A stretch of 64,000 nt of DNA, from assembly GCA_937879955.1 (NCBI GenBank), contig CALFMK010000001.1, forward strand, positions 5,461 through 69,460, given 5' to 3'. Numbering within the stretch: position 1 is the first letter of the stretch; the number at the start of each line of letters is the position of its first letter. Under the pieces are notes generated by a model, which worked only from the letters and a program-made list of their open reading frames with translations, was not told where the DNA came from and did not search any database. Position numbers and translations under genes: made by a program. The stretch comes from an uncultured bacterium. GTDB taxonomy: Bacteria > Patescibacteriota > Minisyncoccia > Phycocordibacterales > Phycocordibacteraceae. This document shows positions 1 to 64,000 of this stretch, one piece after another.

Positions 1-377
1 TTCTTCTGGAACTGCAGGCTGTTGCGGGCCGGCCACAGCGCGAAGCGGGCGATGAGGAAGCCGAAGAGGACGTTGAGGAGCACGAGGCCGAGGAACGAGT
101 ACAGGTACGCCTCGTCCTTCACGGCGTCGATGGTGTCCGGCAGGCTGCTCGTGGTGGTCGCGTTCTCTGCGAGCGCCTGGGCTATCTGCGTCGTGATGGT
201 CTCCACGGTGCGCTCCTGGGCGTAGTGCACGCCCCACACGAACACCACGATCGAGATCAGGGCGAGCACGATCTGCAGCCCGACGACATGGATCGCCGTC
301 TTCACGAACAGGTTGTACCGGTACTTATCGATTAAGTCGGTAACCCACGCCGCGGACGGTTTCGAAGAGAGGGGCAT
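1..377 (-). CDS. sensor histidine kinase, N-terminal fragment (continues beyond window start)
   Basis: Minus-strand frame is open from the ATG at 377-375 to position 1. It is absent from the ORF track because no stop lies in the window. Translation MPLSSKPSAAWVTDLIDKYRYNLFVKTAIHVVGLQIVLALISIVVFVWG...LYSFLGLVLLNVLFGFLIARFALWPARNSL shows two hydrophobic helices flanking a short loop, as in OmpR-partner kinases. It lies directly downstream of the response regulator and overlaps its 3' end. Start codon uncertain. Confidence 0.5.
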   Translation of the reverse strand, partial: MPLSSKPSAAWVTDLIDKYRYNLFVKTAIHVVGLQIVLALISIVVFVWGVHYAQERTVETITTQIAQALAENATTTSSLPDTIDAVKDEAYLYSFLGLVLLNVLFGFLIARFALWPARNSLQFQK

Positions 378-999
378 CTGCATAGGTATCGAGCTTCTTG
401 CGAAGATTCTTCATGTGTACATCAAGCACGTTCGAGAAGCCAGGGAAGTCGAAGCTCCAGACATGGTCGAGGATGCTCTCGCGCGTGAGGGCCTCGTCCG
501 GGTGGCGCATGAAGTACTCGAGGAGCGAGTACTCCTTGAGCGTGAGGGAGAGCGGCTTGCCGCCCTTGGTCACGGTCCGCGCCCCGGAGTCGAGCTCGAT
601 GTCGCGGACGGAGAGCTTCGACGGGAGGCTCTGCTCAGGACGGCGGAGCACCGCGTTGATGCGGGCCACGAGCTCCTCGAACGAGAACGGCTTCGCGAGG
701 TAGTCGTCGGCGCCGGTGTTGAGGAGCTCCACCTTGTACTCGGTCTCGTCGCGGGCCGTGAGGATGATGATCGGGGTCTTCACGCCCTCCTTCCGAGCCT
801 CGCGCGTGATGGTGGCGCCGTCGACGCCCGGGAGCATGAGGTCGAGCAGGATGAGGTCGTACTCGTCCCGGTAGAGGAGGATGCGGGTCTTCGCCTTCTC
901 GCTCTCCGCGATCCAGTCCACGGCGAAGCCCTTCGACTCGAGGCCGCGCTTCAGGCCCTCGGCGAGCTTCGCTTCGTCTTCAACGATGAGTATGCGCAT
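325..999 (-). CDS. OmpR/PhoB-family response regulator
   Basis: Receiver motifs MRILIVEDE, LILLDLMLPGVDG, ILTARD and AKPF, followed by a winged-helix output domain (LTLKEYSLLEYFMRHPDEALTRESILDHVW...VDVHMKNLRKKL...TVRGVGYRL). Confidence 0.92.
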   Translation of the reverse strand: MRILIVEDEAKLAEGLKRGLESKGFAVDWIAESEKAKTRILLYRDEYDLILLDLMLPGVDGATITREARKEGVKTPIIILTARDETEYKVELLNTGADDYLAKPFSFEELVARINAVLRRPEQSLPSKLSVRDIELDSGARTVTKGGKPLSLTLKEYSLLEYFMRHPDEALTRESILDHVWSFDFPGFSNVLDVHMKNLRKKLDTYADAPLFETVRGVGYRLNR

Positions 1000-5863: not shown

Positions 5864-8257
5864 ATGAAACACGTGGGAAGGCTTCTGGTACTGCTTTTTG
5901 GTGCTTTTATCTTTCCGGGGATGGTCTCTGCAGCCACCTACTACGTTGATGCGACTCTCGGTAATAATTCGAATAACGGCACTGCCGCTAGTACCTCGTG
6001 GCAGACGCTCGCCAAAGTAAACGGCACTACATTCTTGGCTGGCGATAATATCCTCTTTAAGAAGGGAGAGACGTTTACTGGTGTGCTCGTAGCAGGCCAG
6101 AGTGGCACTAATGGGAATCCAATCACGTACGGCTCATATGGGGAGGGTGCGCGCCCAATTATTAATGCCGCTGGAAATAATCATGGATTCGACATCCGGA
6201 CAGGTAAGTCTTATATCAATGTAGCTGGCCTCGAAGTTCGAAACGCGACCTTGAACCAGTTTCTTCTGTTCGCTAATAGTTCGAATATATCGCACGTGTC
6301 CATCCAGGACTCGATAGCTGTAGGGGGAACGAGCGGATTCAATTTACAGGGACCAGGAACGTTTCTAGACATAACAATAAGTAGCAGTACCGCAAGCGGG
6401 TACGCGGGAGGTTCTGCGGTTGGTGTTCGCCTTGGTTCAGGAACCACTTTTGATGGAATTACTCTCGATGGAGTATCGGCGGCTTCTGGAAGTGGGTATC
6501 AGGGCTTCAGTACTGGATCGGGAACCTATTCAAATATTTCGATACTGAACTCATCGTTCACTGGGCATCCATCAAACGGTATTGCGTTTCTGTCTGCAAC
6601 GACGACTAACGTGGTCATTAGGGATACTGTAGCGAGCTTGAATGGAGGAAGTGGGATTTATTTCTTTGGTGTGAAGAGTGGAGTTGAGATTGATAACGTA
6701 ACAGCAAACTCAAATACCCAAAACGGAATAGGATTTGAAGCTGGTGCCATGAATCACATATCAATCGAAGACTCCGAGTTCAACAATAATGGACTTAATG
6801 GAATCGCACTTCTCGGAAGCGGAACCGGAACGTCAACAATCGTTTCTCGGTCGATTGCGTCTGGTAATGATAATGACGGTTTTAATATCTCTGGAAACTG
6901 GCAGAATGTCGTATTCGAGGAAGCGATCGCAAGTGATAATGGTGTAGATGGTATTGGCTCGAACGGAGACGGCTTCAGCTTTCACAACTCGAGCACCGGT
7001 GTAATTAGGAATAGCCAGGCACATAATAATTGGAAGTCAGCCGTAACAAACGTGAATACATCGAGCACGACGGTATATAACAACCTCTTTTCGCATGACA
7101 CCAACGGAACGAATGCCCTCATCACATTCCTAGACAGCGGAAGCCATGCTGCTTACAACAATGTGCTCTATAGCCCTGCACAGGTGGGGTATGGATTGGT
7201 CGCGAATGGTACAACGACACTCATAGCGAGGAATAATATTATTCAAGGTTTTCAGTACGGCGTATCGAAGGGGACGAATGCCTTCTTGGTAGAAGATTAC
7301 AATGACGTTTATGGAGCCAGTACGGCCTCCTACATTGGGCTTACTGGAGGTGTACATTCTATCTCTGTGAATCCAAAGTTTGTCGACGCTGAGGATGATG
7401 ATTTCCGACTACTTCAGTCCTCTCTTGCTATAAATGCAGGTACTACGACGCCCTATGTAACCGATTACCTCGGAAATCCACGCGTCGGCATTCCGGATAT
7501 GGGTGCATATGAGTATCAGGGAATACCTGATATAACAGCACCTTCTATCTACATAATTGCACCAGTGGATCCGGCTACGATATCTGGAACTGTAATTATT
7601 ACCGCATCAGCGACGGATGCTATCGGCGTAGAAGAAGTCGAATTTTTTCTAGATGGAGTATCGCTCGGGGATGATGCATCTGATCCTTATTCATTTTCAT
7701 GGAACTCATCTGCAGTTCCCGATGGCGTATACTCACTTCTCGCAGTTGCACATGATGCTGAAGGGAATTATGCCACCTCCTCTCCTGTCTCCGTCACGGT
7801 CTCGAATGTAATTCAGGAAGCGAGCCATCGCTCTGGTAAGTCCGGTCAGAGTGTCGTACGCACTATCTCTCCGCTCGCAGATTCTGTATTAAATGAAGGA
7901 GAAGCAAAGATATCATCAATAAATCGGCTCATACTCGATAATCGCGCACTTTTTATGCTTGCGCAGGAAAAGGGAATAGTAGTTCCTGAATTCATACTCA
8001 ATATGCTCGATCTCCCTTCGGGCTCGACCATTTCGATATTCTTTAATCGTCCTCTTGCGCTTGGAGCAACTGGCCCAGATGTCACTGCACTCCAGCAGAT
8101 TCTTAAGGATAAGGGCTTCTATGTTTATCAGGAGATAACCGGCTACTACGGACAAGCCACACTACAAGCTGTTGCTGACTACCAGAAGTCACTTGGGCTC
8201 GAATCTCTCGGGTATGTAGGTCCAGCAACAAGGGAAGCCTTGAATGCTGGGATTTGA
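5864..8257 (+). CDS. secreted parallel beta-helix repeat protein with Ig-like module and C-terminal peptidoglycan-binding domain
   Basis: Signal peptide MKHVGRLLVLLFGAFIFPGMVSA. About 400 aa of G/N/S/T-rich repeats (..NGI.F..) typical of right-handed beta-helices. Ig-like segment VEEVEFFLDGVSLGDDASDPYSFSWNSSAVPDGVYSLLAVAHDAEGN. PG_binding_1-like tail GATGPDVTALQQILKDKGFY..GYYGQATLQAVADYQKSLGL. Lies in the low-GC island. Confidence 0.8.
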   Translation: MKHVGRLLVLLFGAFIFPGMVSAATYYVDATLGNNSNNGTAASTSWQTLAKVNGTTFLAGDNILFKKGETFTGVLVAGQSGTNGNPITYGSYGEGARPIINAAGNNHGFDIRTGKSYINVAGLEVRNATLNQFLLFANSSNISHVSIQDSIAVGGTSGFNLQGPGTFLDITISSSTASGYAGGSAVGVRLGSGTTFDGITLDGVSAASGSGYQGFSTGSGTYSNISILNSSFTGHPSNGIAFLSATTTNVVIRDTVASLNGGSGIYFFGVKSGVEIDNVTANSNTQNGIGFEAGAMNHISIEDSEFNNNGLNGIALLGSGTGTSTIVSRSIASGNDNDGFNISGNWQNVVFEEAIASDNGVDGIGSNGDGFSFHNSSTGVIRNSQAHNNWKSAVTNVNTSSTTVYNNLFSHDTNGTNALITFLDSGSHAAYNNVLYSPAQVGYGLVANGTTTLIARNNIIQGFQYGVSKGTNAFLVEDYNDVYGASTASYIGLTGGVHSISVNPKFVDAEDDDFRLLQSSLAINAGTTTPYVTDYLGNPRVGIPDMGAYEYQGIPDITAPSIYIIAPVDPATISGTVIITASATDAIGVEEVEFFLDGVSLGDDASDPYSFSWNSSAVPDGVYSLLAVAHDAEGNYATSSPVSVTVSNVIQEASHRSGKSGQSVVRTISPLADSVLNEGEAKISSINRLILDNRALFMLAQEKGIVVPEFILNMLDLPSGSTISIFFNRPLALGATGPDVTALQQILKDKGFYVYQEITGYYGQATLQAVADYQKSLGLESLGYVGPATREALNAGI

Positions 8258-8284
8258 ATTCTTCTAGAGGACGGCGATAATAAA

Positions 8285-8500
8285 CTATATATAACGTTTA
8301 ATTATCTCAACACTGCCCAAGGTCAGTATGTCTCTACCGACCACTCCGTTCTTACGGGTACTAATTACTTTAATAGCTTCTCGTTCGAGAAAGTACATTA
8401 CCGCAGTGTTCAGAATTAAATTCCTATCCCTCTCCTCTGTAACTAGTAAATCAATCGTTTCAAGGACATCCTCTGGAATATCAAGATTAATTTTAGACAC
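8285..8500 (-). CDS. ribbon-helix-helix (CopG-like) small DNA-binding protein
   Basis: KINLDIPEDVLETIDLLVTEERDRNLILNTAVMYFLERE follows the RHH strand-helix-helix pattern. GTG start, no obvious SD, 23 nt after the upstream ORF. Low GC. Confidence 0.55.
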   Translation of the reverse strand: MSKINLDIPEDVLETIDLLVTEERDRNLILNTAVMYFLEREAIKVISTRKNGVVGRDILTLGSVEIIKRYI

Positions 8501-8523
8501 TGTAAATTCTAAAAATTAAAGCT

Positions 8524-9003
8524 CTAGCTGAACTTCAGCATTTTCGTTTCTAAATTTTCCAGCAATATCTGATAACGCGCATCGAGAGGATTTAACTTGT
8601 AACGTATTTGACGTATAACGATTTTGTATAATTTCCCAACTTGCCCTCGCGTTTCTATACGAATACGGAAGGCTGCTGTCATTCCTGTTGGTATCTTGCA
8701 GTAAACTATCGTGCCTAGGGCAACTTGAGTTATGTTCTCTCCTCGGCATGAAATATCAGTTTTTAATATTGAACTCTGAGCCGTTCCTTCAATCTGATAT
8801 ACAAAACCGGTTGGCTTCTTGCCCGAGGCAACCGAAAGAGGAACGTATAGATCTTTCCGAGGAGCAGTTATGTTAATGATAAATATAAAATTCCCGATTA
8901 CGCGGTCAGGTCCATTAGGAATTCGCGTTCTCCTAAGATTCTCTTCAGTGTCTTTAATATCGACCAAGACATCTTTCTCCGGTGGAATGATTGGTTTATC
9001 CAT
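8524..9003 (-). CDS. hypothetical protein (low-GC island)
   Basis: 159-aa ORF co-oriented with and immediately upstream of the RHH gene. I recognise no motif. Confidence 0.5.
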   Translation of the reverse strand: MDKPIIPPEKDVLVDIKDTEENLRRTRIPNGPDRVIGNFIFIINITAPRKDLYVPLSVASGKKPTGFVYQIEGTAQSSILKTDISCRGENITQVALGTIVYCKIPTGMTAAFRIRIETRGQVGKLYKIVIRQIRYKLNPLDARYQILLENLETKMLKFS

Positions 9004-9116
9004 ATAATCAGATAGCTCTTTGTATAAGATCAGTATGGGTTTAGGAATATGAAAAATATCTCAAAATTGCATAAAGTAATTATGGAGACAGTGGCAGAAA
9101 GCTGATCTAGTCACTT

Positions 9117-9148
9117 CGAAAAGAAGCACCGGACCACATGTCCGGTGC
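9117..9148 (-). terminator. intrinsic terminator (minus strand) after the 9182-9484 gene
   Basis: GCACCGGAC-ATGTG-GTCCGGTGC on the minus strand, followed by TTCTTTTCG. Confidence 0.6.
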
Positions 9149-9181
9149 TAACTAATATGAATCCTATAAGAAAGAGGCAAA

Positions 9182-9484
9182 TTACTTCTTACCCCAGCGC
9201 CATGATGGCTCTTCGCCAAAGCGTAGGCAGATCCGGTAGAGGGAATAGGAAAGAAGGGCGATAACGCCTGTGAACTCTAAGACTCCGAAAATGATGTCCC
9301 GGGCCCCTACATGGCTCTCGACCGCGGCACCGACCCATCCGAAGAATATAAGGAAGGCGAAGGTGAAGAGGAGGGCATAGAAGACCGTCACGGCCCATCC
9401 CTGCCATGAGACAGGGAACCAGCCCCACCCGAATTCCTTCGCCCGGAACCACAGCTTCCGGGCCTTCCTTTTGTGTTCGCTCAT
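9182..9484 (-). CDS. small integral membrane protein
   Basis: 100 aa with two or three hydrophobic helices (WAVTVFYALLFTFAFLIFFGWVGAAV, IIFGVLEFTGVIALLSYSLY). Confidence 0.6.
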   Translation of the reverse strand: MSEHKRKARKLWFRAKEFGWGWFPVSWQGWAVTVFYALLFTFAFLIFFGWVGAAVESHVGARDIIFGVLEFTGVIALLSYSLYRICLRFGEEPSWRWGKK

Positions 9485-9643
9485 GGGCTTATAATACTGT
9501 AAATAGGCCGTTTTATCCAGGCTTGACTCCTAAAAATGAGGGTCTCCTGAACATGAAGAATTGGCTTTCCACGTCTTGACAGTGGTTGTCAACCCTGCTA
9601 CTATGGGCCTTGTCAGGCCGTCCGCAAGGGCGGTCTTTCATTT

Positions 9644-10258
9644 ATGCCAGTTATTGCAGTAGTAGCCCTTATGGGCTTCCTGTTTTTACCGGGTAGCGCA
9701 GGAGCGCCGGCACAAGCGGAGACGATTTCCGCGCCGGTCGCGATAGCGGGGGCGGCTGAAGAGCCTTCCAAACGCCTGGCCACCTCGAAAGAGGCGGCCC
9801 GGACCTACCAGGTAAGTATGACCGCTTACAATGCCGTTCCCGGCCAGACGGATGCCAACCCATTCGTCACCGCGAGCGGCATGGCCTCGAATCACGAGGT
9901 TGTGGCTGCGCGATCGCGCGATATGGCGGCTGAACTCCCGTTCGGCACCGTCATACGCTTCGAGCGCTCGACGAAGGACACGCCTTCGTGCCGTTTCGGC
10001 GAAGTCGAGCACTTGATGGGGTACCGCATCATCGCGGACACCATGCATGAGCGCTGGAGCCACAAGGTGGACGTGCTCTTCGACCAGACCGATACGGTCA
10101 TGGTCGAGGGACGCATCGTCAACCCGGCGCTCGCCCTCGGTATCTGCGACGACGTGACGATCACGGTCGTGGGAACTGTCGATATGACGGATCCGCCGAC
10201 CACGCAGGCCGAGCTCGCGGCGATGTTCGCCACGCCGACCTACGCGATAGCGAAATAA
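9644..10258 (+). CDS. secreted 3D-domain (RlpA/MltA-like double-psi beta-barrel) cell-wall protein
   Basis: Signal peptide, then YQVSMTAYNAVPGQTDANPFVTASG, the hallmark of 3D-domain proteins. TTGACA-N17-TACTAT promoter at about 9583-9611. Confidence 0.75.
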   Translation: MPVIAVVALMGFLFLPGSAGAPAQAETISAPVAIAGAAEEPSKRLATSKEAARTYQVSMTAYNAVPGQTDANPFVTASGMASNHEVVAARSRDMAAELPFGTVIRFERSTKDTPSCRFGEVEHLMGYRIIADTMHERWSHKVDVLFDQTDTVMVEGRIVNPALALGICDDVTITVVGTVDMTDPPTTQAELAAMFATPTYAIAK

Positions 10259-12897: not shown

Positions 12898-14979
12898 CTA
12901 TGCGCGCTCGATAGTAGCGAGAATCTCCTCGATCTCAGCGAGCCCCGCCGGCTTCGTGAGATGGTGGTCGAACCCGGCCTTCCGGGCCTTCTGTATGTCG
13001 GATTCCTGGCCGTAGCCGGTGAGTGCGACGAGCGTCGCGGCGAACCCATCAGCGCGGAGCGCCGTCGCGACCTCGTAGCCCTCCATGTCCGGCAGGCCGA
13101 TGTCGAGCAGGATCACGTCAGGACGGAACGCGGGCGCGCGGGCGATAGCCTCCTCGCCGGTATATGCGGTTTCGGTACGGTTCCCGCGGAGCGTGAGGAG
13201 CTTCGCGAGCGCGTCGGCCGCGGCGCGGTTGTCGTCCACGACGAGGATGCGGAACCCGTCACGCGCCTTTGGCGCTGCTACGGCCCGTGCCCGCACCCCG
13301 ACGGCTCCCTCCTGCGGGAGCGGGATGCGGACGGTGAACCGGCTCCCGTGTCCGGGCCCGTCGCTCTCGGCCTCGATCGTGCCGTCGTGCATCTCCACCA
13401 GGTTCTTGGTAAGCGAGAGGCCGATGCCGAGACCTGCGTGCATCTTGCCGGGCTGCTCGATCTGGAAGAACGGTTCGAAGACGTGCGCAAGGAGCGCGGC
13501 GTCCATGCCGATGCCGGTGTCCGTCACCGTGACGACGGCCTCGGTCCCGTCCGTGCGTGCCACGAGCTCGATACGGCCTCCGGGCTCGGTGTACTTCGCC
13601 GCGTTGTTGAGGAGGTTCACGAACACCTGCTCGAGACGCACGGGATCGGCCTCGAGGCGGATCGCCTCGTCCGGCATGTCGATCGAGAGCTCGTGCTTGA
13701 GGGACGCCATGAGCGGCGCCACGGTACGCTGGCTCCTTGCGAGCACGGTCTGGAGGTCGATGTGCTCCTTCTGGAGGGAGAGCTTCTCGCGGGTGATGCG
13801 CGAGATGTCGAGCAGGTCGTCGAGGAGATGCCGCATGGTCTTCAGGTGGTCGGTCATGCCTTCGGCGAGCTCGCTCGAGCGAGCGGCATCCGGCCGCTCG
13901 AGCTTCATGATCTCGAGCGAGGACATGAGCGGGGCGAGCGGGTTGCGCAGCTCGTGCGCGAGGGTGGCGATGAAGCGGCTCTTCGCCTCGTCCTCACGGC
14001 GGATCCGCTCCACGGCGTCCTCGAGCCTGCGCACGTTGTCGCGCAGGACGTTCGCGGTGTCCTTGCGCTCCTCCGCGATGGAGACGAGCACGAGGAATAT
14101 GAGGGAGAGCACGATCACGAATATCTCGGTCTGCAGGAGGTCGTATCCGAGCGTCCCTGTACCGGACGCGAGGCTGAGGAACGCGGTGCCGCCGAGCGCG
14201 AGCGCGGCGTTCAGGAAGAGCGCGAGCGTCATGAAGCGCGGGCCGATGCGCAGCGCGATCCAGAGGAACGGGATGAGGATAAGGTATACGAGCGGCACCT
14301 GCGCGATCTCGCGGTATGGGGTCCAGTACAGGAGGAGGCCGGTCCCGACGACGGCCGCTATCGCGACCCAGGCCTCGACGAGCTCGCCCTTCGTGCGCTG
14401 GAACCTGAAGCGCGGCAGCCACTTGATGAGGAGCGGCGTCACGACGAGCATGGAGAGGATGTGCCCGATCCACCACGGGATGAAGGTACCCATGAGGCCG
14501 CGGGGCATGGCGCGCTCGGCCAGGGTGAAGGTGAGGGTTCCGAGCGCCGGGATGAGGATGGTGACGAAGAGCGCGACGAACACGAACATGAGGGTGTCGG
14601 GAGCCTTCGAGAAGGTGTTGCGGTATCCGAGCTTCCGGAGGAGCCAGGTGCCCACGCTTGCCTGTATGGCGTTCGCCGCCGCAAGCCCGAGCGCCACGAA
14701 CAGCACGCTCCCGTTCAGGAGCTGGTGCGCGAGAGCTGCCAGGAATACCGCAGGCCAGAGCGCGATGCCGCCGAGGAGGAGTCCGCCGAGCGCGATGCCG
14801 GATGCCGGCCAGATGAGGGCCGGGGCGGTCGGGACGGAGGAATAGATATGCGAGAAGACCTGGGCGCAGAACAGGTACGCGCAGAACAGCAGCGCCATGT
14901 AGAGGAGCGACCGTCCGGAATAGGGGAAGCGAGGCATAGACGGGTGGATGGCGTTCTCCCTAGGATACATTCTTTTCAT
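12898..14979 (-). CDS. hybrid sensor histidine kinase (multi-TM MASE1-like sensor, HisKA, HATPase, C-terminal receiver)
   Basis: About 300 aa of TM helices. H-box LAHELRNPLAPL. ATP-lid boxes NLLNNAAKYT, DTGIGM and GLGIGL. Receiver ILVVDDN..ILLDIGLPDMEG..LTKP. Start could be an internal Met (14970 or 14937). Confidence 0.85.
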   Translation of the reverse strand: MKRMYPRENAIHPSMPRFPYSGRSLLYMALLFCAYLFCAQVFSHIYSSVPTAPALIWPASGIALGGLLLGGIALWPAVFLAALAHQLLNGSVLFVALGLAAANAIQASVGTWLLRKLGYRNTFSKAPDTLMFVFVALFVTILIPALGTLTFTLAERAMPRGLMGTFIPWWIGHILSMLVVTPLLIKWLPRFRFQRTKGELVEAWVAIAAVVGTGLLLYWTPYREIAQVPLVYLILIPFLWIALRIGPRFMTLALFLNAALALGGTAFLSLASGTGTLGYDLLQTEIFVIVLSLIFLVLVSIAEERKDTANVLRDNVRRLEDAVERIRREDEAKSRFIATLAHELRNPLAPLMSSLEIMKLERPDAARSSELAEGMTDHLKTMRHLLDDLLDISRITREKLSLQKEHIDLQTVLARSQRTVAPLMASLKHELSIDMPDEAIRLEADPVRLEQVFVNLLNNAAKYTEPGGRIELVARTDGTEAVVTVTDTGIGMDAALLAHVFEPFFQIEQPGKMHAGLGIGLSLTKNLVEMHDGTIEAESDGPGHGSRFTVRIPLPQEGAVGVRARAVAAPKARDGFRILVVDDNRAAADALAKLLTLRGNRTETAYTGEEAIARAPAFRPDVILLDIGLPDMEGYEVATALRADGFAATLVALTGYGQESDIQKARKAGFDHHLTKPAGLAEIEEILATIERA

Positions 14980-40221: not shown

Positions 40222-40296
40222 TGGTGACCTCACGGGGAATCGAACCCCGATTTGATCCGTGAGAGGGATCTGTCCTAGCCGTTAGACGATGAGGCC
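40222..40296 (-). tRNA. tRNA-Glu (anticodon CTC), CCA encoded
   Basis: Cloverleaf folded by hand. Acceptor GGCCTCA/TGAGGTC, D-arm GTCT-AACGGCTA-GGAC, anticodon stem GATCC/GGATC with loop CTCTCAC, T-arm CGGGG-TTCGATT-CCCCG, then A plus CCA. Confidence 0.93.
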
Positions 40297-41758: not shown

Positions 41759-42766
41759 TCATATAGGGGCGGAAAGTGCGTAGTCTCCGGTCCTCGTGGT
41801 GCGAAGCGCGCTGAGGCCGTGGCTGTGATAGAGCGCCCTCCATTCGGCATACTCCGCCGCGCTCAGTCCCGGATACTTTGCCAGGACGTAGGGAAGCGGG
41901 ATGCCGCCCTTCTCGACGAGCAGGACGATCACCGCCTTGCGGCGTATGACCCATCGCGTGTCCTGCGCTTCGGACGGGAGGTCCTCGGCGCAGATCTTCA
42001 TTCCCAGGGGGCCCGTGATCGTCTTCTTCGGGTCGAAGCAGACCGTCGGGTTCGCGCTCGGATCGAGCCTGAGCTCGCCGAAGTAGTAGCCGCGGCCCCA
42101 GACGGTCCTGAGCGGAGGGTTACCCGGGAAGAACGCCCCGAGAGCCTTCCGCATCCTGCACGCATGCACGTCGATTATCTTCGGATCGACATGCGTGCCT
42201 TCCTCGTGCCTCGCATCCAGCAGCATCTGCCGCGTATGGATGATCCCGGACTTCGAGATGAGGGTCGTGAGCAGGCGGGCCTCGTCAGGGGTGATGCGCG
42301 CGCGCTGGCCCCCGATGAAGACCTCGTCGAGCCCGTTGATGACGATCGGAACGCCTTCGTGCACGGACTCGAGCTTGGTCGCGACGGATTGCAGCTCGGC
42401 TCCGTCTTCAAGCGCGAGCATGTAGCCCCTCCTGGGATGCGTGCTGATGACCTGCCTTGCGGCGGGGTGGCACGCGGCGAGCCGCATGCGGATATGGTGG
42501 ATATGGGTGTCGATCACCTTATCGAGCGGAGGATGCTCCTTGTTGCCGTCGATGACGCGCTTGAGGCTCGCCTTCGACTGCAGATGGCCACGCCGATCCA
42601 TCATGTAGAGGAAGAGCTTCTGCTCCGAAGGCGTGAACTTGGCGGAGATCTCGTTTACTGAGACCTGGCCGCTCGAGGCGATCTTGAACACCAGCTCTCC
42701 GTACGTAAGCTGGATAGGGTCTCGCTGGGGAGCCGCGTGGGTTCCCGTACGTTCGACGACGCTCAT
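41759..42766 (-). CDS. receiverless regulator with two tandem OmpR/PhoB-type winged-helix domains and a C-terminal DUF1153-like HTH
   Basis: Domain 1: FTPSEQKLFLYMMDRRGHLQSKASLKRVI...VIDTHIHHIRMRL...ISTHPRRGYML. Domain 2: ITPDEARLLTTLISKSGIIHTRQMLLDA...IIDVHACRMRKAL...LRTVWGRGYYF. Tail: RWVIRRKAVIVLLVEKGGIPLPYVLAKYPGLSAAEYAEWRALYHSHGLSALRTTR. Start set to the ATG at 42766 with an AGGAG SD; the track start is 42820. Confidence 0.75.
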   Translation of the reverse strand: MSVVERTGTHAAPQRDPIQLTYGELVFKIASSGQVSVNEISAKFTPSEQKLFLYMMDRRGHLQSKASLKRVIDGNKEHPPLDKVIDTHIHHIRMRLAACHPAARQVISTHPRRGYMLALEDGAELQSVATKLESVHEGVPIVINGLDEVFIGGQRARITPDEARLLTTLISKSGIIHTRQMLLDARHEEGTHVDPKIIDVHACRMRKALGAFFPGNPPLRTVWGRGYYFGELRLDPSANPTVCFDPKKTITGPLGMKICAEDLPSEAQDTRWVIRRKAVIVLLVEKGGIPLPYVLAKYPGLSAAEYAEWRALYHSHGLSALRTTRTGDYALSAPI

Positions 42767-42854
42767 GTACTTGCTCCTAGATACCTTGGTTTCAACGAAT
42801 CCAGAGCCAGTAAATGACAAGAAGGAGGCCGTGTCAATAAATAGGACAATGGAA

Positions 42855-42883
42855 AGAGCCGCCCTTCATGGAAGGGCGGCTCT
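42855..42883 (-). terminator. 13-bp hairpin after the CtrA-like copy 1 gene
   Basis: AGAGCCGCCCTTC-ATG-GAAGGGCGGCTCT. Confidence 0.55.
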
Positions 42884-42912: not shown

Positions 42913-43683
42913 TCAGGCCATCGGCGCCGGACTCGGGGCGCCGGAGCCGTTCGTGAAGGCCGGTCTCGCGGCCTCGGCGATCGGAAGATCTTCTGCCATC
43001 ACGCGCTCGTTCGGGTCGCGCAGCACGTAGCCGCGGCCCCAGACGGTCTCGATGTGGTGCCTGCCGCTGTTACCGGAAGCGAGCTTCCTGCGCAGCTTGC
43101 AGACGAACACGTCCACGATCTTGAGTTCCGGCTCGTCCATGCCGCCGTACAGGTGGTTCAGGAACATCTCCTTGGTGAGGGTGGTGCCCTTGCGCAAGGA
43201 GAGGAGCTCCAGTATCTGGTACTCCTTGCCGGTCAGGTGCACGTGCTTCCCGCCGATCTCGACGGTCTTCGCGTCGAGGTTCACGACGATCTCGCCGGTC
43301 TTGATGACCGACTGGGCATGACCCCGCGAGCGCCGCACGATCGCGTGGATGCGCGCGATCATCTCGTCCTTGTGGAACGGCTTGGTCATGTAGTCGTCGG
43401 CGCCGCCCGCGAAGGTCTTCACCTTCATGTCGATCTCGGCGGATCGCGCCAGGATCATGATCGGCGTGTTGACCTTCGCGACCCTGATGGTGCGAAGCAC
43501 GTCGATCGCTGACATGTCGAGCAGGTCGAGACTGAGTACGATCATGTCGTAGTCATATATCTTTGCCAGATCGACGCCCTCCTCGCCCAGGTCGGTCACG
43601 TAGACGTTGAAGCCTTCCGACTTCAGCATCAGCTCGATCGTCTGGGCGGTAGCGCTGTCGTCTTCGATCAGGAGAATACGCAC
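42913..43683 (-). CDS. CtrA-like response regulator paralog with degenerate receiver (Ser at the phospho-acceptor position) and a C-terminal Pro/Ala-rich extension
   Basis: GTG start with a [47 protein letters not shown]... The expected [11 protein letters not shown] reads [12 protein letters not shown], and the conserved T/S reads A ([10 protein letters not shown]). The output domain [52 protein letters not shown]...[11 protein letters not shown] is near-identical to copy 2. Confidence 0.85.
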
Positions 43684-43736: not shown

Positions 43737-43764
43737 ATGATAGTGATTATCCGGGCATTGTCAA
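43737..43764 (-). promoter_or_regulatory. sigma70-type promoter of CtrA-like copy 1 (TTGACA-N16-TATCAT)
   Basis: -35 at 43764-43759 and -10 at 43742-43737 on the minus strand. Paralogous in sequence to the promoter at 44597-44624. Confidence 0.6.
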
Positions 43765-43851: not shown

Positions 43852-44547
43852 CTACGCCGCGGATACCATCTCGTTCTCGTCGCGCAGCACGTAGCCGCGG
43901 CCCCAGACGGTATCGATGTGATGCTTGCCGCCGTTGCCCGAGCCGAGCTTCTTGCGAAGCTTGCAGATAAAGACGTCCACGATCTTGATCTCGGGAACAT
44001 CGATGCCGCCGTACAGGTGATTCAAGAACATCTCCTTGGAAAGGGCGGTGCCCTTGCGTAGCGACAGGAGCTCGAGCATCTGGTACTCCTTGCCGGTCAG
44101 GTGCACGCGCGTGCCGCCGACCTCGACGGTCTTCATGTCGAGGTTCACGACGATCTCGCCGGTCTTGATGACCGAATGAACGAGACCCTTCGAGCGCCGT
44201 ACGATCGCATAGATGCGAGCCACGAGCTCGTCCTTATGGAACGGCTTGGTCATGTAGTCGTCGGCGCCGAGGTTCAGCGCCTTCACCTTCGTCTCGATGC
44301 GGGTGTCGCCGGTCGAGATCATGACGAGCGTCTCGATCTTCTCGGCGCGGAGCGTCCGGAGAACGTCGAGGCCGTACATGTCAGGCAGGTTAAGGTCGAG
44401 CAGGATCAGGTCGTAGTCGTAGGACCTCGCGAGATCGAGACCCTCCTCGCCCAGGTCGGTCGTCTGGACGCTGAAACCTTCCGACATCAGCATCAGCTCC
44501 ACCGTTTGGGCAGTGGCGCCGTCATCTTCGATCTGGAGAACGCGCAT
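43852..44547 (-). CDS. ctrA: CtrA-type OmpR-family response regulator (canonical receiver)
   Basis: [67 protein letters not shown]...[28 protein letters not shown]...[32 protein letters not shown]...[11 protein letters not shown], ending in ..SAA. It reads along its whole length like alphaproteobacterial CtrA as I remember it. Track ORF trimmed to the ATG at 44547 with an AGGAGG SD. Confidence 0.85.
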
Positions 44548-44674: not shown

Positions 44675-44974
44675 CTAGGGAGGTGGGAAGAGCGGCAGCT
44701 GTCGTGCATCCTGCGCCGCTCGCGCTTCGGCGCGCTCACGCTTCTTGCTGTTTCTCGAACGCGTCGCGCCCGCTTTCTTGCCGTACCGCTGACGGAGTCT
44801 CGCGACGAGGCCTTCGGGCGTATCGGCATCGGGCCAGCAGGTGCTGTTCAGGAACTCGTTCGCCTTTTGTACGAGCTCCTTATTCGTGAATCGGTTAAGG
44901 TCCTTCGGGCCGTGCCGCCTCCGGAAGCGCAGGTTCCGCTCGAATGCGTCGAGACGCTCTTCAGGGGACAGCAT
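44675..44974 (-). CDS. hypothetical basic small protein ending in QLPLFPPP
   Basis: 99 aa with GC-rich third positions. Overlaps the upstream ORF by 14 nt. A terminator follows directly. Confidence 0.5.
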
Positions 44975-61886: not shown

Positions 61887-62006
61887 ATGGCACGCCGAGC
61901 AAAGAAACATTCCAAGGGACCGGGGCTCGAGGTCTACGCGTTCTGGACCGGGTTCGCGAGCACTATCATCAGCCTCCTGCACGTGCTCATCGTGGCGAGC
62001 AAGTAG
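61887..62006 (+). CDS. possible 39-aa tail-anchored small protein
   Basis: MARRAKKHSKGPGLEVYAFWTGFASTIISLLHVLIVASK. Shares the (L/V)YAF.TG..ST.ISL...(L/V)I.A.K pattern with the previous ORF. Confidence 0.35.
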   Translation: MARRAKKHSKGPGLEVYAFWTGFASTIISLLHVLIVASK

Positions 62007-62010
62007 CGCC

Positions 62011-62130
62011 ATGGCAGAGAATAAGCCTGCACCATCGTTCCGTGACCCGAAGCGCGGCATGAGCGCGTTCTCGAGCAAGGGCGTGAAGAAGCCTGTACGC
62101 GCGTCGTATTTCGGAAAGAAGGCGCGATAG
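62011..62130 (+). CDS. possible 39-aa basic small protein
   Basis: MAENKPAPSFRDPKRGMSAFSSKGVKKPVRASYFGKKAR. Followed 8 nt later by a strong terminator. Confidence 0.3.
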   Translation: MAENKPAPSFRDPKRGMSAFSSKGVKKPVRASYFGKKAR

Positions 62131-62138
62131 GGAAGGGA

Positions 62139-62166
62139 AAAGCCGGAGTAGGGATGCTCCGGCTTT
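62139..62166 (+). terminator. intrinsic terminator closing the LOG / tiny-ORF transcription unit
   Basis: AAAGCCGGAG-TAGGGATG-CTCCGGCTTT followed by T. Confidence 0.65.
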
Positions 62167-62182
62167 TACGTAGGTGGATGCG

Positions 62183-62368
62183 TCATCGGGTGCGGCCGCT
62201 GTAGGTGAGCACGCCGGCGATTATGATCGCGACGGTGACAGTCCGTCCGGCGATCTGTACGACAGGGTCCGGATGGAGATTCGCCGCGAGCGAGCAGAGC
62301 AGCATCACGAGAGCGACGGTGTACAGAATGATCGAGATACCCCTACTTTCAGGACTATGACGCGACAT
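62183..62368 (-). CDS. small membrane protein, hypothetical
   Basis: 61 aa with two hydrophobic helices (ISIILYTVALVMLLCSLAA, VTVAIIIAGVLTY). Confidence 0.4.
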   Translation of the reverse strand: MSRHSPESRGISIILYTVALVMLLCSLAANLHPDPVVQIAGRTVTVAIIIAGVLTYSGRTR

Positions 62369-62554
62369 GGCACGGACCTTTCCTAAAGAGCGATACCGAG
62401 CTCTTCCGCTAGTATGCGCTCCGCCGGGGATTTGTTAAGCAGAAAGGCACTCGACTTTATCTTTTCTTTATCTCTCGTACATACACTGAGCCGGGTAGTT
62501 CTTTCATCCTGCAAGGTCGCCCGTAGCGACTGCGCATGAATACCCGCATAGGGG

Positions 62555-62586
62555 AGAGCGAACCGTCCGTCAGGGCGGTTCGCTCT
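62555..62586 (+). terminator. 13-bp hairpin in the 62.4-62.6 kb ORF-free region
   Basis: AGAGCGAACCGTC-CGTCAG-GGCGGTTCGCTCT followed by TT. Confidence 0.45.
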
Positions 62587-62648
62587 TTAGTGGTGTAATA
62601 TTTTAGCCCTAAACACGGTACGCGCACGGTGCTATAGTCGAGGTATCT

Positions 62649-63014
62649 ATGCCTTGGCCACGAGTGGGGGACTGGTTGGAGAGGATCAGTAAATCGAACG
62701 CGCTCTATCCGCTCCTCATAGCGCTATGCCTCTCCGTCGCGTTCGCCGGTACGGTCATAGCATTCGTACCGAACGTTCTCATCCAGGTCATCGTCTGTAT
62801 ACCAGTGCTGATGATCGTATTCCAGATCGTCCGGAGCTTCGAGTACTTCTCCAAGAACAACCCGGACATGCTCCGGACCGAGACGCATGTGATCCAGCAG
62901 CGCGTCCTCGAGATGATGGGGGACGAGTCCGGCGTCGTGCACGCGACTGCGGCCGACCTGGTAGCCATAACGAATCCTGCGAATACCCAGGATAGAATCG
63001 AAAACCATGGCTAA
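62649..63014 (+). CDS. membrane protein, hypothetical
   Basis: 121 aa with two TM helices (LYPLLIALCLSVAFAGTVIAFV, IQVIVCIPVLMIVFQIV). TATAGT box upstream. Confidence 0.5.
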   Translation: MPWPRVGDWLERISKSNALYPLLIALCLSVAFAGTVIAFVPNVLIQVIVCIPVLMIVFQIVRSFEYFSKNNPDMLRTETHVIQQRVLEMMGDESGVVHATAADLVAITNPANTQDRIENHG

Positions 63015-63294
63015 CATCTATCTTATCGCCGTAAAGAATGATGATTCCTTCAATGTTAAGGAATTCCATAAATTTGTTAAGGAAAAACTCTATCCTGAGC
63101 ATGTGGGCGGTTGGTGGCATTACGTTTCTGGACCAACCTATCTCGTTAAGTCGGAAACACTTGATGCTAAGGGAATATCCGAAATCATCACCCAGTTCAC
63201 TGGCAAGCAGAGTCATCTTGTTACCAAGATCGATCTAGAAGATATCGAAGGAATGTTGCCGGCTCGCGCATGGGACTGGCTCGGACTCTACTAA
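63007..63294 (+). CDS. hypothetical protein (low-GC island)
   Basis: 95 aa. Overlaps the previous gene by 8 nt. AT-rich codon usage. Confidence 0.5.
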   Translation: MANIYLIAVKNDDSFNVKEFHKFVKEKLYPEHVGGWWHYVSGPTYLVKSETLDAKGISEIITQFTGKQSHLVTKIDLEDIEGMLPARAWDWLGLY

Positions 63295-63512
63295 TGGAGC
63301 ACATCACACTTCAAGAGTATGAAGATACTGATGGAACGAGGATGGAGCTCGGTATCCAGTATGACGAAGCTACCTACCAGTTCATCGTTTCCGGAACGCC
63401 AATTAATGGCAATGGGGCGTATGAGGCAGGGAAGACGCCCATTTTCGCATCCTTCCCGACCCTCGAAGAAGCAAGGATGTTCGTAGAAAAGAGTTTCACT
63501 AAGATCTCCTAG
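63294..63512 (+). CDS. hypothetical protein (low-GC island)
   Basis: TAATG stop/start overlap with the previous gene. MEHITLQEYEDTDG... (72 aa). The track start at 63270 is in the same frame. Confidence 0.45.
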   Translation: MEHITLQEYEDTDGTRMELGIQYDEATYQFIVSGTPINGNGAYEAGKTPIFASFPTLEEARMFVEKSFTKIS

Positions 63513-63571
63513 GAATCTTCGGTTTATTTTTTCTCCAGGATTCCTTTATCCGGGGCTGGTAGGGTTCGGAT

Positions 63572-64000
63572 ATGGCAATGGTAGAAGAAAATCTGATACT
63601 TTCCCTCTTGAAGAAAGAGTTTCCGAAGGCGCCCGAACAGGTATTGAGACAATGGCTTGCTCCAGCTGTTAAGAAGGACGGTTGGCCACCGACCGGACTT
63701 CATTGGATCGGTGTATTGGGGAAAAGGGATCTGGATTTCTGGAAAAAGAAGGAATGGTCCCTTAAGGACGTTAACCTCGAAGAAGCTTCCTGGGATTACG
63801 ATACTAGGTACGCGGCAGAAAAGGTGCTCGAAGGGTTTGTTGCATCTCAAGAATCTGAAGTCCTCTTCTCTGATTCTCATGAGAAGCAGAAGGTCATACG
63901 AGCACTTAAGCACCTTTCAGTCGAAGGAAGCTTCTTCGAGCCGATAACCGCATTTCTCGTAGAAAACGAATCTGGTGGCTACTCGCTCGTAGACGGATTC
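63572..64000 (+). CDS. hypothetical protein, N-terminal fragment (runs off window end); possibly ParB/Srx-like
   Basis: Open frame from the ATG at 63572 to the window end (143 codons), so it is absent from the track. It ends ...GGYSLVDGF, reminiscent of the ..LIDG(H/F)HR motif of ParB-like nuclease domains, but the motif is cut by the window edge. Confidence 0.4.
   Translation, partial: MAMVEENLILSLLKKEFPKAPEQVLRQWLAPAVKKDGWPPTGLHWIGVLGKRDLDFWKKKEWSLKDVNLEEASWDYDTRYAAEKVLEGFVASQESEVLFSDSHEKQKVIRALKHLSVEGSFFEPITAFLVENESGGYSLVDGF

Follow-up and report, generated by a model that had tools for sequence, protein, structure and literature searches.

In a 64-kb window of DNA from an uncultured bacterium (64,000 nucleotides of contig CALFMK010000001.1, the whole stretch analyzed and the extent of our view of this genome), the gene at 42913..43683 on the minus strand encodes a 256-residue protein of the CtrA family that has Ser at the position of the phospho-acceptor Asp51. 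We call this Asp-less gene the S51 copy. Its product has a receiver (residues 1-118) and a winged helix-turn-helix (wHTH) domain (residues 125-225). The explanation that we favor, with somewhat better than even confidence, is that the S51 copy is an aspartate-less CtrA pseudo-receiver regulator in a three-gene module, that this module reached a Paceibacterota clade by horizontal transfer from a Caulobacterales-type alphaproteobacterium, and that it was kept between yqeY and truB. Besides the Asp-less gene, the module would contain a CtrA-like gene with a canonical pocket and a gene that joins two wHTH domains to a SciP-like domain, (wHTH)2-SciP. CtrA is treated as a hallmark of Alphaproteobacteria. 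A full-text literature search for links between CtrA and Patescibacteria, Parcubacteria, Paceibacteria, or Saccharibacteria found none, only coincidental co-mentions.

The S51 protein is CtrA by sequence and lacks the acceptor aspartate

By its sequence, the S51 protein is CtrA. It aligns without gaps to Caulobacter vibrioides CtrA over 230 residues at 86% identity, and its closest database proteins are bona fide Caulobacter CtrAs (85-86% identity). The NCBIfam CtrA equivalog model NF045991 (cutoff, 350 bits) scored it at 379.9 bits. Caulobacter CtrA scored 410.2, and the tandem neighbor of the S51 copy scored 360.8. This neighbor (the D51 copy; 43852..44547, minus strand) is a CtrA-family paralog of 231 residues that has a canonical pocket (D51, T79, K101), ends in ..VSAA, and is 77-78% identical to the same Caulobacter CtrAs. 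The two window copies are 72% identical over 230 residues, with no gaps: 80% in the output domain and 65% in the receiver. The output domains had been called near-identical in a first-pass annotation of this DNA, which overstates the measured value.

Five pocket residues (DD, D, T, and K) catalyze phosphotransfer in receivers (PMC12632262). The S51 copy is recognized as a receiver by Pfam (Response_reg, PF00072, 72.5 bits, profile positions 1-110 of 111; the output domain matches Trans_reg_C at 73 bits) yet has no acceptor Asp, and so belongs among the aspartate-less receivers. Its receiver aligned without gaps to Caulobacter CtrA, the D51 neighbor, the Brucella CtrA receiver (PDB 4QPJ), and DrrD (1KGS). 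Hence, Ser51 (codon AGT, 43531..43533, minus strand) sits exactly on the acceptor Asp. Asp53 (43525-43527), the Asp of the SLD motif that a proper alignment might have moved to the acceptor position, stays two residues downstream. Replacing Asp with Ser needs at least two nucleotide changes, so one sequencing error cannot explain it. In the same alignments Ala79 falls on the conserved Ser/Thr79 of the switch, and the Lys of TKPF, Lys101, is present. On all of these points the first-pass annotation had read the pocket correctly. Asp8/Asp9 and Tyr98 are also retained.

Three further changes (Pro55 to Leu, Gly59 to Ala, and Gly80 to Arg) affect columns whose conservation across 41 CtrA references is at least 97%. 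In full, the remodeled pocket reads D51S, N53D, P55L, G59A, S79A, and G80R. Is the S51 receiver then diverged, as first proposed? Its active-site loops are: deviations from conserved columns were enriched there (6 of 20 loop columns versus 16 of 173 others; Fisher p = 0.015), and the non-conservative changes of the receiver are located in these loops. The receiver as a whole is not. It is 86% identical to that of Caulobacter CtrA, compared with 73.5% for the D51 copy; once the phosphorylation pocket is set aside, the S51 copy has the better conserved receiver of the two, and it is the neighbor's receiver that has drifted more. Among the 154 closest CtrA homologs in a database of 5.8 billion proteins, 152 have Asp51; only the window S51 protein and a CtrA-like protein from another contig, L085, do not. 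Given the gapless placement of Ser51, this tandem CtrA-family paralog is predicted to be unable to take phosphate at the canonical site, as had been suggested from the outset.

The recognition helix (residues 185-201) differs from the CtrA consensus only at I190V, I194V, and K199R, and the columns around these differences are invariant across 43 sequences, which marks the output domain as a CtrA-type wHTH. The alpha4-beta5-alpha5 face differs from that of Caulobacter solely at S82A, T86M, and V115I. Ile115 is found in five of the six copies that we recovered from the Candidate Phyla Radiation (CPR), versus Val in 40 of 41 references.

The GTG start codon, already assigned in the first-pass annotation, aligns with Met1 of CtrA and has GGAGAG before it. 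A sigma-70-type promoter-like site (TTGACA-16-TATCAT, 11 of 12 matches; 43737..43764, minus strand) lies upstream of the gene. Just past the stop codon is a terminator-like hairpin (42851..42882, minus strand), 12 bp and GC-rich, followed by TTTCC; it was read from the sequence, and the terminator scan did not call it, as its T-run is short. The D51 copy has a promoter-like site at 44624-44597 and a terminator-like hairpin at 43827-43800 (both minus strand, from the scans). Each of the three module genes has its own TTGACA-type promoter-like site and hairpin terminator, and the promoter scan of the module region returned seven sites in 5.6 kb versus 1.3 expected.

The C-terminal extension removes the ..AA end

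The S51 protein closes with a C-terminal extension of 26 letters, E231-A256 (42916..42993, minus strand), which replaces the terminal Ala of the ..AA end. CtrA ends at A231, and residue 231 of the S51 protein is Glu; the tail thus adds 25 residues net, the length originally proposed for an extension in place of ..SAA. The tail is identical in a sister strain (contig L084). An AlphaFold2 (AF2) model of the S51 protein, built from a shallow, low-diversity alignment, is of low confidence (mean predicted local distance difference test [pLDDT], 56.5), and we used it solely for secondary structure and tail disorder: the tail has no secondary structure and a pLDDT of 32-37.

ClpXP reads non-polar C-terminal residues in its substrates (PMC8973945). 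The S51 protein ends in ..APMA and has no C-terminal Ala-Ala determinant for ClpXP, whereas all other CPR copies and Caulobacter CtrA end in ..AA. Because the tail removes a non-polar end of the kind read by this protease, and the others keep it, the S51 protein is probably the most stable variant.

The tail starts with AEDLP (42979-42993), as does the SciP-like domain of the fusion protein encoded next door (41977-41991). DLP is invariant in the fusion SciP-like domains, and stand-alone SciP proteins have it as their conserved motif at the N terminus. The two AEDLP stretches are not alike in their DNA (21 of 51 nucleotides), and the shared motif may be due to chance or to convergence on a short motif.

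The Asp-less form is the constant member of the module

Independent samples yielded at least five more Paceibacteria-like contigs that carry the module between yqeY and truB: L085, L097, L086 (with L087 and L088), L098, and L109. In L085 and L097 the order is RmuC-ATPase-YqeY ... CtrA-like - fusion ... TruB. In L086 it is RadC-YqeY-CtrA-like-CtrA-like-fusion-TruB ... MurF. L098 and L109 hold partial versions.

At residues 51/53/79/101, the window S51 copy reads S/D/A/K. The CtrA-like proteins of L085 and L097, each the only copy in its locus, both read N/D/D/K. L086 has one Asp-less copy (L086_RR1, N/D/G/L) and one with a canonical pocket (L086_RR2, D/N/T/K), and the latter pattern is also that of the window D51 copy. 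Hence, wherever residue 51 can be read, the lineage has a CtrA without the acceptor Asp and with [N/S]51-L-D53, and only two of these four lineages have a canonical copy. We conclude from these sequences that the Asp-less form is the constant member of the module and that the canonical copy is optional. The concern raised early on that the gene might be disrupted in related genomes did not materialize: it is not disrupted, and Asp-less orthologs are conserved in other lineages. In a neighbor-joining tree with the pocket columns masked, the window S51 protein grouped with those of L085 and L097 (44% bootstrap), all CPR copies fell together (47%), and that group stood next to Caulobacter (43%).

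Several further CtrA-like or Asp-less receivers came up. In L098 (2-829) and L109 (1-228), the CtrA-like protein beside the fusion has a long C-terminal extension of ~230 residues, with a Pro-rich linker and extra helical domains; these extensions still end in ..KKAA or ..QKAA. A degenerate DNA pattern for I-x-L-[NS]-L-D-L-[LP]-D-M matched eight loci in JGI metagenomes, none of them CtrA-like. Among them, L089, L092, and L094 (JGI Ga0265297_10001126 and Ga0265297_10000620) encode paralogous hybrid kinase-receiver proteins of an organism of ~39% GC. These proteins have a receiver with Ser at the acceptor (IFLSLDLPDM) and a long helical C-terminal region, and they are an unrelated pseudo-receiver family. 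Two contigs from the IMG/VR viral collection (L101:4916-6034 and L104:1316-2083) encode CtrA-like proteins with a Glu acceptor (MLLEIALPDM and LIILETVLPDT) and C-terminal extensions; these would be natural phosphomimics of the D51E type. Other CtrA-like proteins on viral contigs keep Asp. A search of the phage GenBank collection returned distant response regulators only, plus one 64% partial match.

A Caulobacterales-type module in a Paceibacterota genome

CtrA would lead one to expect an alphaproteobacterial host, and the first-pass annotation had assumed one. The window genes point elsewhere. The window DnaB falls in a 90% cluster with a "Patescibacteria group bacterium" metagenome-assembled genome (MAG), and of the 80 MurF loci in GTDB species representatives that are closest to the window, nearly all belong to MAGs labeled Paceibacterota, Parcubacteria, or Patescibacteria. 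The window carries a dense, streamlined housekeeping set: RNR, MreB/C, PBP2, MurA, MraZ-RsmH-FtsI-MurF, TruB, YqeY, RadC, RecR, DnaB, CysRS, and L9. We therefore take the host to be a member of the CPR, in Paceibacterota; the contig to which the window belongs is 591 kb long.

The order MurF-TruB-YqeY-RadC-P-type ATPase is conserved in related GTDB genomes. All 80 GTDB loci are without a CtrA-like gene at this place; the sole response-regulator match (L034) is generic, at 43-45%. Because synteny is kept in these relatives with no CtrA-like gene there, ~3.5 kb (41759 to ~45200) constitutes an insertion relative to them. A sister strain (sample SRR14271336; 95-97% nucleotide identity) has the same arrangement on contigs L002 and L084. 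These contigs break inside the two ctrA repeats, and residue 51 lies outside their coverage: L002 ends within the N terminus of the D51 copy, and L084 opens with the last 43 codons of the S51 copy, followed by the fusion gene and truB. In the first 25 codons of the D51-type copy, the two strains (L002:6265-6339 versus window 44473-44547) differ at 11 of 75 nucleotides and at three amino acids. This is far above the 3-5% divergence of the flanks, and could be paralog gene conversion or a graph artifact at the contig end.

The module forms a compositional island, rich in GC at third codon positions (GC3), in lineages of lower GC: in L085, L097, and L098, GC3 is 0.78-0.82 for ctrA-like genes and 0.69-0.81 for the fusion, versus 0.50-0.66 for the flanks. 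CtrA-like proteins are 82-84% identical between genomes whose P-type ATPases are only 53-54% identical, and relatives closer to the window (73-78% ATPase identity) lack the module. These three observations argue for horizontal acquisition from a high-GC Caulobacterales-type donor. The window S51 gene and the Caulobacter gene are 82% identical at the nucleotide level. Taken together, the sequences indicate a patchy distribution in Paceibacteria, by loss or CPR-to-CPR spread, and very strong constraint on the CtrA-like genes.

Both window copies are under purifying selection

We estimated nonsynonymous-to-synonymous ratios (dN/dS) pairwise by the Nei-Gojobori method (NG86) over codons 2-225; dS in these comparisons is compressed by a GC3 of ~0.9. 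For the S51 copy, the ratio was 0.13 (0.126) against Caulobacter (dN 0.090, dS 0.717), 0.13 against L085 (dN 0.117, dS 0.900), 0.13 against L097 (dN 0.118, dS 0.882), and 0.37 against the D51 copy (dN 0.172, dS 0.466). A three-point decomposition of the NG86 values placed omega at ~0.35-0.38 on both window branches versus ~0.07 on the stem or Caulobacter branch. Constraint on both window copies is relaxed but clearly still purifying. The receiver is the faster-evolving half of the D51 copy. The S51 open reading frame (ORF) is intact, with a GC3 of 0.89-0.91. With dN/dS at ~0.13-0.37 and its own promoter-like site and terminator hairpin, the S51 gene does not look like one in decay.

The third gene joins two winged helices to a SciP-like domain

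Directly downstream of the S51 copy, the fusion gene (41759..42766, minus strand) encodes a protein of 335 residues in which two wHTH domains of the OmpR/CtrA type are followed by a SciP-like (DUF1153) domain at the C terminus. Pfam matched Trans_reg_C twice and DUF1153 (PF06627) at 63.7 bits, versus a gathering score of 23.5. Like stand-alone SciP, the C-terminal domain has the DLP..RWV.RRKA motif in addition to its above-threshold DUF1153 match. The fusion protein differs from SciP in that the domain is joined to two wHTH domains, and its best NCBIfam match, "CtrA inhibitor SciP" (NF051866), reached 61 bits, below the equivalog cutoff of 100. The AF2 model (mean pLDDT, 78.8) has two winged helices and a small helical domain, and Foldseek matched it to OmpR/PhoB DNA-binding domains. 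Between the two strains, dN/dS is 0.23 for the fusion gene and similar, 0.20, for truB.

An exhaustive HMMER search returned relatives of ~310-335 residues with the same (wHTH)2-SciP-like architecture at 25-32% identity. The architecture was seen in the CPR-type contexts examined and in uncharacterized metagenome proteins, and no alphaproteobacterial counterpart of the fusion gene was found. This (wHTH)2-SciP family is previously undescribed. SciP forms a ternary complex with CtrA and DNA (PMC8973945).

At the yqeY-proximal edge of the insertion lies an ORF of 99 residues with no assigned function (44675..44974, minus strand). It is conserved in the sister strain and had no Pfam or NCBIfam match.

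How the S51 protein may act

If the S51 protein takes no phosphate at the canonical site, it would be a phosphorelay-independent DNA-binding regulator on CtrA-type sites. We infer this mode of action from the conserved DNA-binding domain, the conserved alpha4-beta5-alpha5 face, and the lineages in which the Asp-less protein occurs alone. Its own level and the SciP-like partner, and not a kinase, would probably determine how active it is, and it may pair with the D51 paralog. By analogy, we suggest that the S51 protein should be filed as an aspartate-less CtrA derivative that would work like the RitR, ChxR, or HP1043-type regulators, since it is without Asp51, without the Ala-Ala end, and without the alphaproteobacterial CckA-ChpT context.

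With Caulobacter vibrioides CtrA the S51 protein shares sequence (86% identity), the equivalog assignment, the receiver-wHTH layout, and a near-identical recognition helix and alpha4-beta5-alpha5 face. It differs in Ser51, Ala79, the changed Pro55/Gly59/Gly80, the gained Asp53, and the 25-residue extension in place of Ala-Ala, and also in its Paceibacterota genome and in having no nearby CtrA boxes in the 64-kb window. The Caulobacter laboratory allele ctrAD51E-delta3-omega is freed from Asp51 phosphorylation and has no C-terminal ClpXP determinant. The S51 protein is likewise without Asp51 and without the determinant. Glu51 is a phosphomimic, however, and Ser51 is not; the S51 protein may therefore lack activity, be activated in another way, or act as a competitor.

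Among OmpR-type regulators, some 2% are aspartate-less, and Asn (16%) and Ser (15%) are common substitutes for the Asp (PMC4395418). In RitR of Streptococcus pneumoniae, Asn occupies the acceptor position, and the Thr/Ser position is taken by an Asp that points inward, as it does in activated receivers (PMC4395418). RitR resembles the S51 protein in joining an OmpR-type wHTH output to a receiver without the phospho-Asp, and its Asn/Asp pair is that of L085 and L097. The two have no sequence relation beyond the family level, and the S51 protein has Ser51/Ala79. It also derives recently from a canonical, essential master regulator, and the redox-Cys mechanism of RitR has no counterpart seen here. 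ChxR (Chlamydia) and HP1043/HsrA (Helicobacter) are OmpR/PhoB-family proteins that dimerize and bind DNA without phosphorylation (PMC3960148, PMC5253667). These are stand-alone native orphans, whereas the S51 copy would be an acquired gene paired with a canonical paralog and an inhibitor-domain fusion. In Clostridioides difficile, CmrR/CmrT are co-encoded OmpR regulators, one canonical and one with a pseudo-receiver, that are thought to cooperate (PMC12548384, PMC12632262). The window pair is alike in this respect, but the CmrRST operon has a cognate kinase; no kinase is adjacent here, and two lineages have the Asp-less protein alone.

Several observations weigh against the reading that we favor. 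Confidence in the AF2 model of the S51 protein is low, dS is compressed, and tree support is weak for both the CPR clade (47%) and the Asp-less subgroup (44%). The retained D8/D9/K101, together with the strict gain of Asp53, mean that the pocket could still handle a phosphoryl group. Finally, TTAA-N7-TTAA with at most one mismatch was found nowhere in the 64-kb window (1.97 expected with one mismatch) and not beside the module in the five other loci. Hence, binding to classical CtrA boxes in this genome is without local support.

Alternative explanations

Might the acceptor have moved? The S51 protein would then still be controlled by phosphorylation, with Asp53 (D+2) or Ser51 taking the phosphoryl group from a His kinase or histidine phosphotransfer protein, or from a Ser/Thr kinase. 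We regard this as unlikely, although it is the best of the alternatives. Loss of D51 and gain of D53 covary perfectly: D53 is present in four of four Asp-less CPR CtrA-like proteins, and position 53 is N or S in the two canonical CPR copies and in each of the 41 references. The window S51 protein, L085, and L097 retain D8, D9, K101, and Y98. CheY D57N can be phosphorylated at the adjacent Ser56. Ser makes up 15% of acceptor substitutions in aspartate-less receivers, and Ser/Thr phosphorylation has been proposed there (PMC4395418). However, the Thr/Ser79 that binds a phosphoryl oxygen has given way to Ala here and to Asp or Gly in the other Asp-less copies, and the beta3-alpha3 loop is altered at Pro55 and Gly59. 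In L086_RR1, Lys101 and Asp8 are gone as well. Asp53 lies off the acceptor position in the gapless alignments to the solved receivers 4QPJ and 1KGS, and N51 with D79 is the combination seen in RitR, whose signaling involves no Asp phosphorylation (PMC4395418).

A more doubtful possibility is that the module acts outside the cell that encodes it: kinase-blind, degradation-resistant CtrA look-alikes and the double-DNA-binding-domain SciP protein of an episymbiont would interfere with a Caulobacterales host, at its CtrA regulon or at its replication origin. The CtrA-like proteins are 84-87% identical to Caulobacter CtrA in lineages whose own housekeeping proteins are ~54% identical, most copies keep the host-type ..AA end, and no CtrA boxes were seen within 64 kb of the symbiont's own genome. 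The absence of both the acceptor and the ..AA end parallels the dominant laboratory allele ctrAD51E-delta3-omega, and the two IMG/VR viral-collection contigs carry CtrA-like proteins with a changed acceptor, Glu51. Against this, the S51 protein has no signal peptide or recognizable secretion signal, and we know of no established route for protein delivery from Paceibacteria into hosts. The promoters are of the ordinary housekeeping type, and CtrA is equally conserved across Alphaproteobacteria for internal reasons. In its boldest form, which we hold to be just as doubtful, the module would be a host-control device, a captured host master regulator plus inhibitor, in which a kinase-blind, protease-resistant CtrA and a single-chain DNA-binding-domain "dimer" tethered to SciP hold the host regulon or origin in a symbiont-favorable state. 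If this were true, the 84-87% identity to host CtrA would be maintained by fit to host DNA sites and partners, and the S51 gene would be a host-assignment marker for an uncultured CPR clade.

We consider it very unlikely that the S51 copy is a decaying duplicate, a pseudogene in the making that lost its acceptor by drift after tandem duplication. The post-duplication rise of dN/dS on both copies (~0.35-0.38 versus ~0.07 on the stem or Caulobacter branch) and the change of several normally invariant residues would fit such decay. The intact ORF, its GC3, and the dN/dS of 0.13 against Caulobacter do not; the changes cluster in the pocket and leave the DNA-binding domain and the alpha4-beta5-alpha5 face almost untouched. 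The gene is equipped with a strong promoter-like site and a terminator of its own, its Asp-less ortholog is the only CtrA-like gene in L085 and L097, and its tail is identical in the sister strain. Selection, conservation, and expression signals thus largely refute decay. Least credible, and for practical purposes refuted, is an assembly chimera or contamination that mis-joined alphaproteobacterial DNA into a CPR contig: very high identity to Caulobacter CtrA, the singleton status of the S51 protein in the database, and the breaks of the sister-strain contigs inside the ctrA repeats could suggest one, but at least six samples, assembled independently, reproduce the junctions with CPR flanks on the yqeY and truB sides, the S51 gene and its Caulobacter counterpart share no more than 82% of their nucleotides, the TTGACA-type promoters are those of the neighboring genes, and the fusion gene has no alphaproteobacterial counterpart.

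Significance of an aspartate-less CtrA outside Alphaproteobacteria

On the reading that we favor, a CtrA/SciP-derived module under selection in ultra-small CPR genomes would mean that a master regulator passed from one phylum to another in a clear and datable transfer. Such a module would also be a rare sequence-based clue to the partners of uncultured symbionts. The strict D51-to-N/S plus N53-to-D swap on an 84-86% identical CtrA backbone would offer a clean case of a canonical receiver becoming a pseudo-receiver. The natural series of acceptor-less CtrAs (S51 or N51 with D53, D79 or A79, with and without the ..AA end) is testable in Caulobacter genetics.

Other features of the region

A tRNA-Glu(CTC) gene (40222..40296, minus strand) lies outside the module, ~1.5 kb from it. 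In the sister strain, a ~7-kb island (L001:11797-18760) sits at the 3' end of this tRNA-Glu, with a duplicated tRNA end; it is absent from the window. The island encodes a DUF4238 protein, several unknown proteins, and a 561-residue serine recombinase, and it identifies the region beside the CtrA module as an active integration hotspot.

The window encodes a second, ordinary OmpR-family response regulator of 224 residues (325-999, minus strand). Its only kinase is a MASE1-HisKA-HATPase-REC hybrid (12898-14979, minus strand). No CckA model was among the 25 best NCBIfam matches listed for this kinase, which were of the EspC, TorS, RcsC, and ArcB types.

At 5864-8257 (plus strand) is a gene for a 797-residue predicted secreted protein, within a patch of 46-47% GC (6001-10000) in a window that is otherwise 60-69% GC. 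By eye, the protein has beta-helix-like repeats, an immunoglobulin-like region, and a peptidoglycan-binding-like C terminus, and two small low-GC ORFs come after it. GC falls again, to 51.5%, at 62001-64000.

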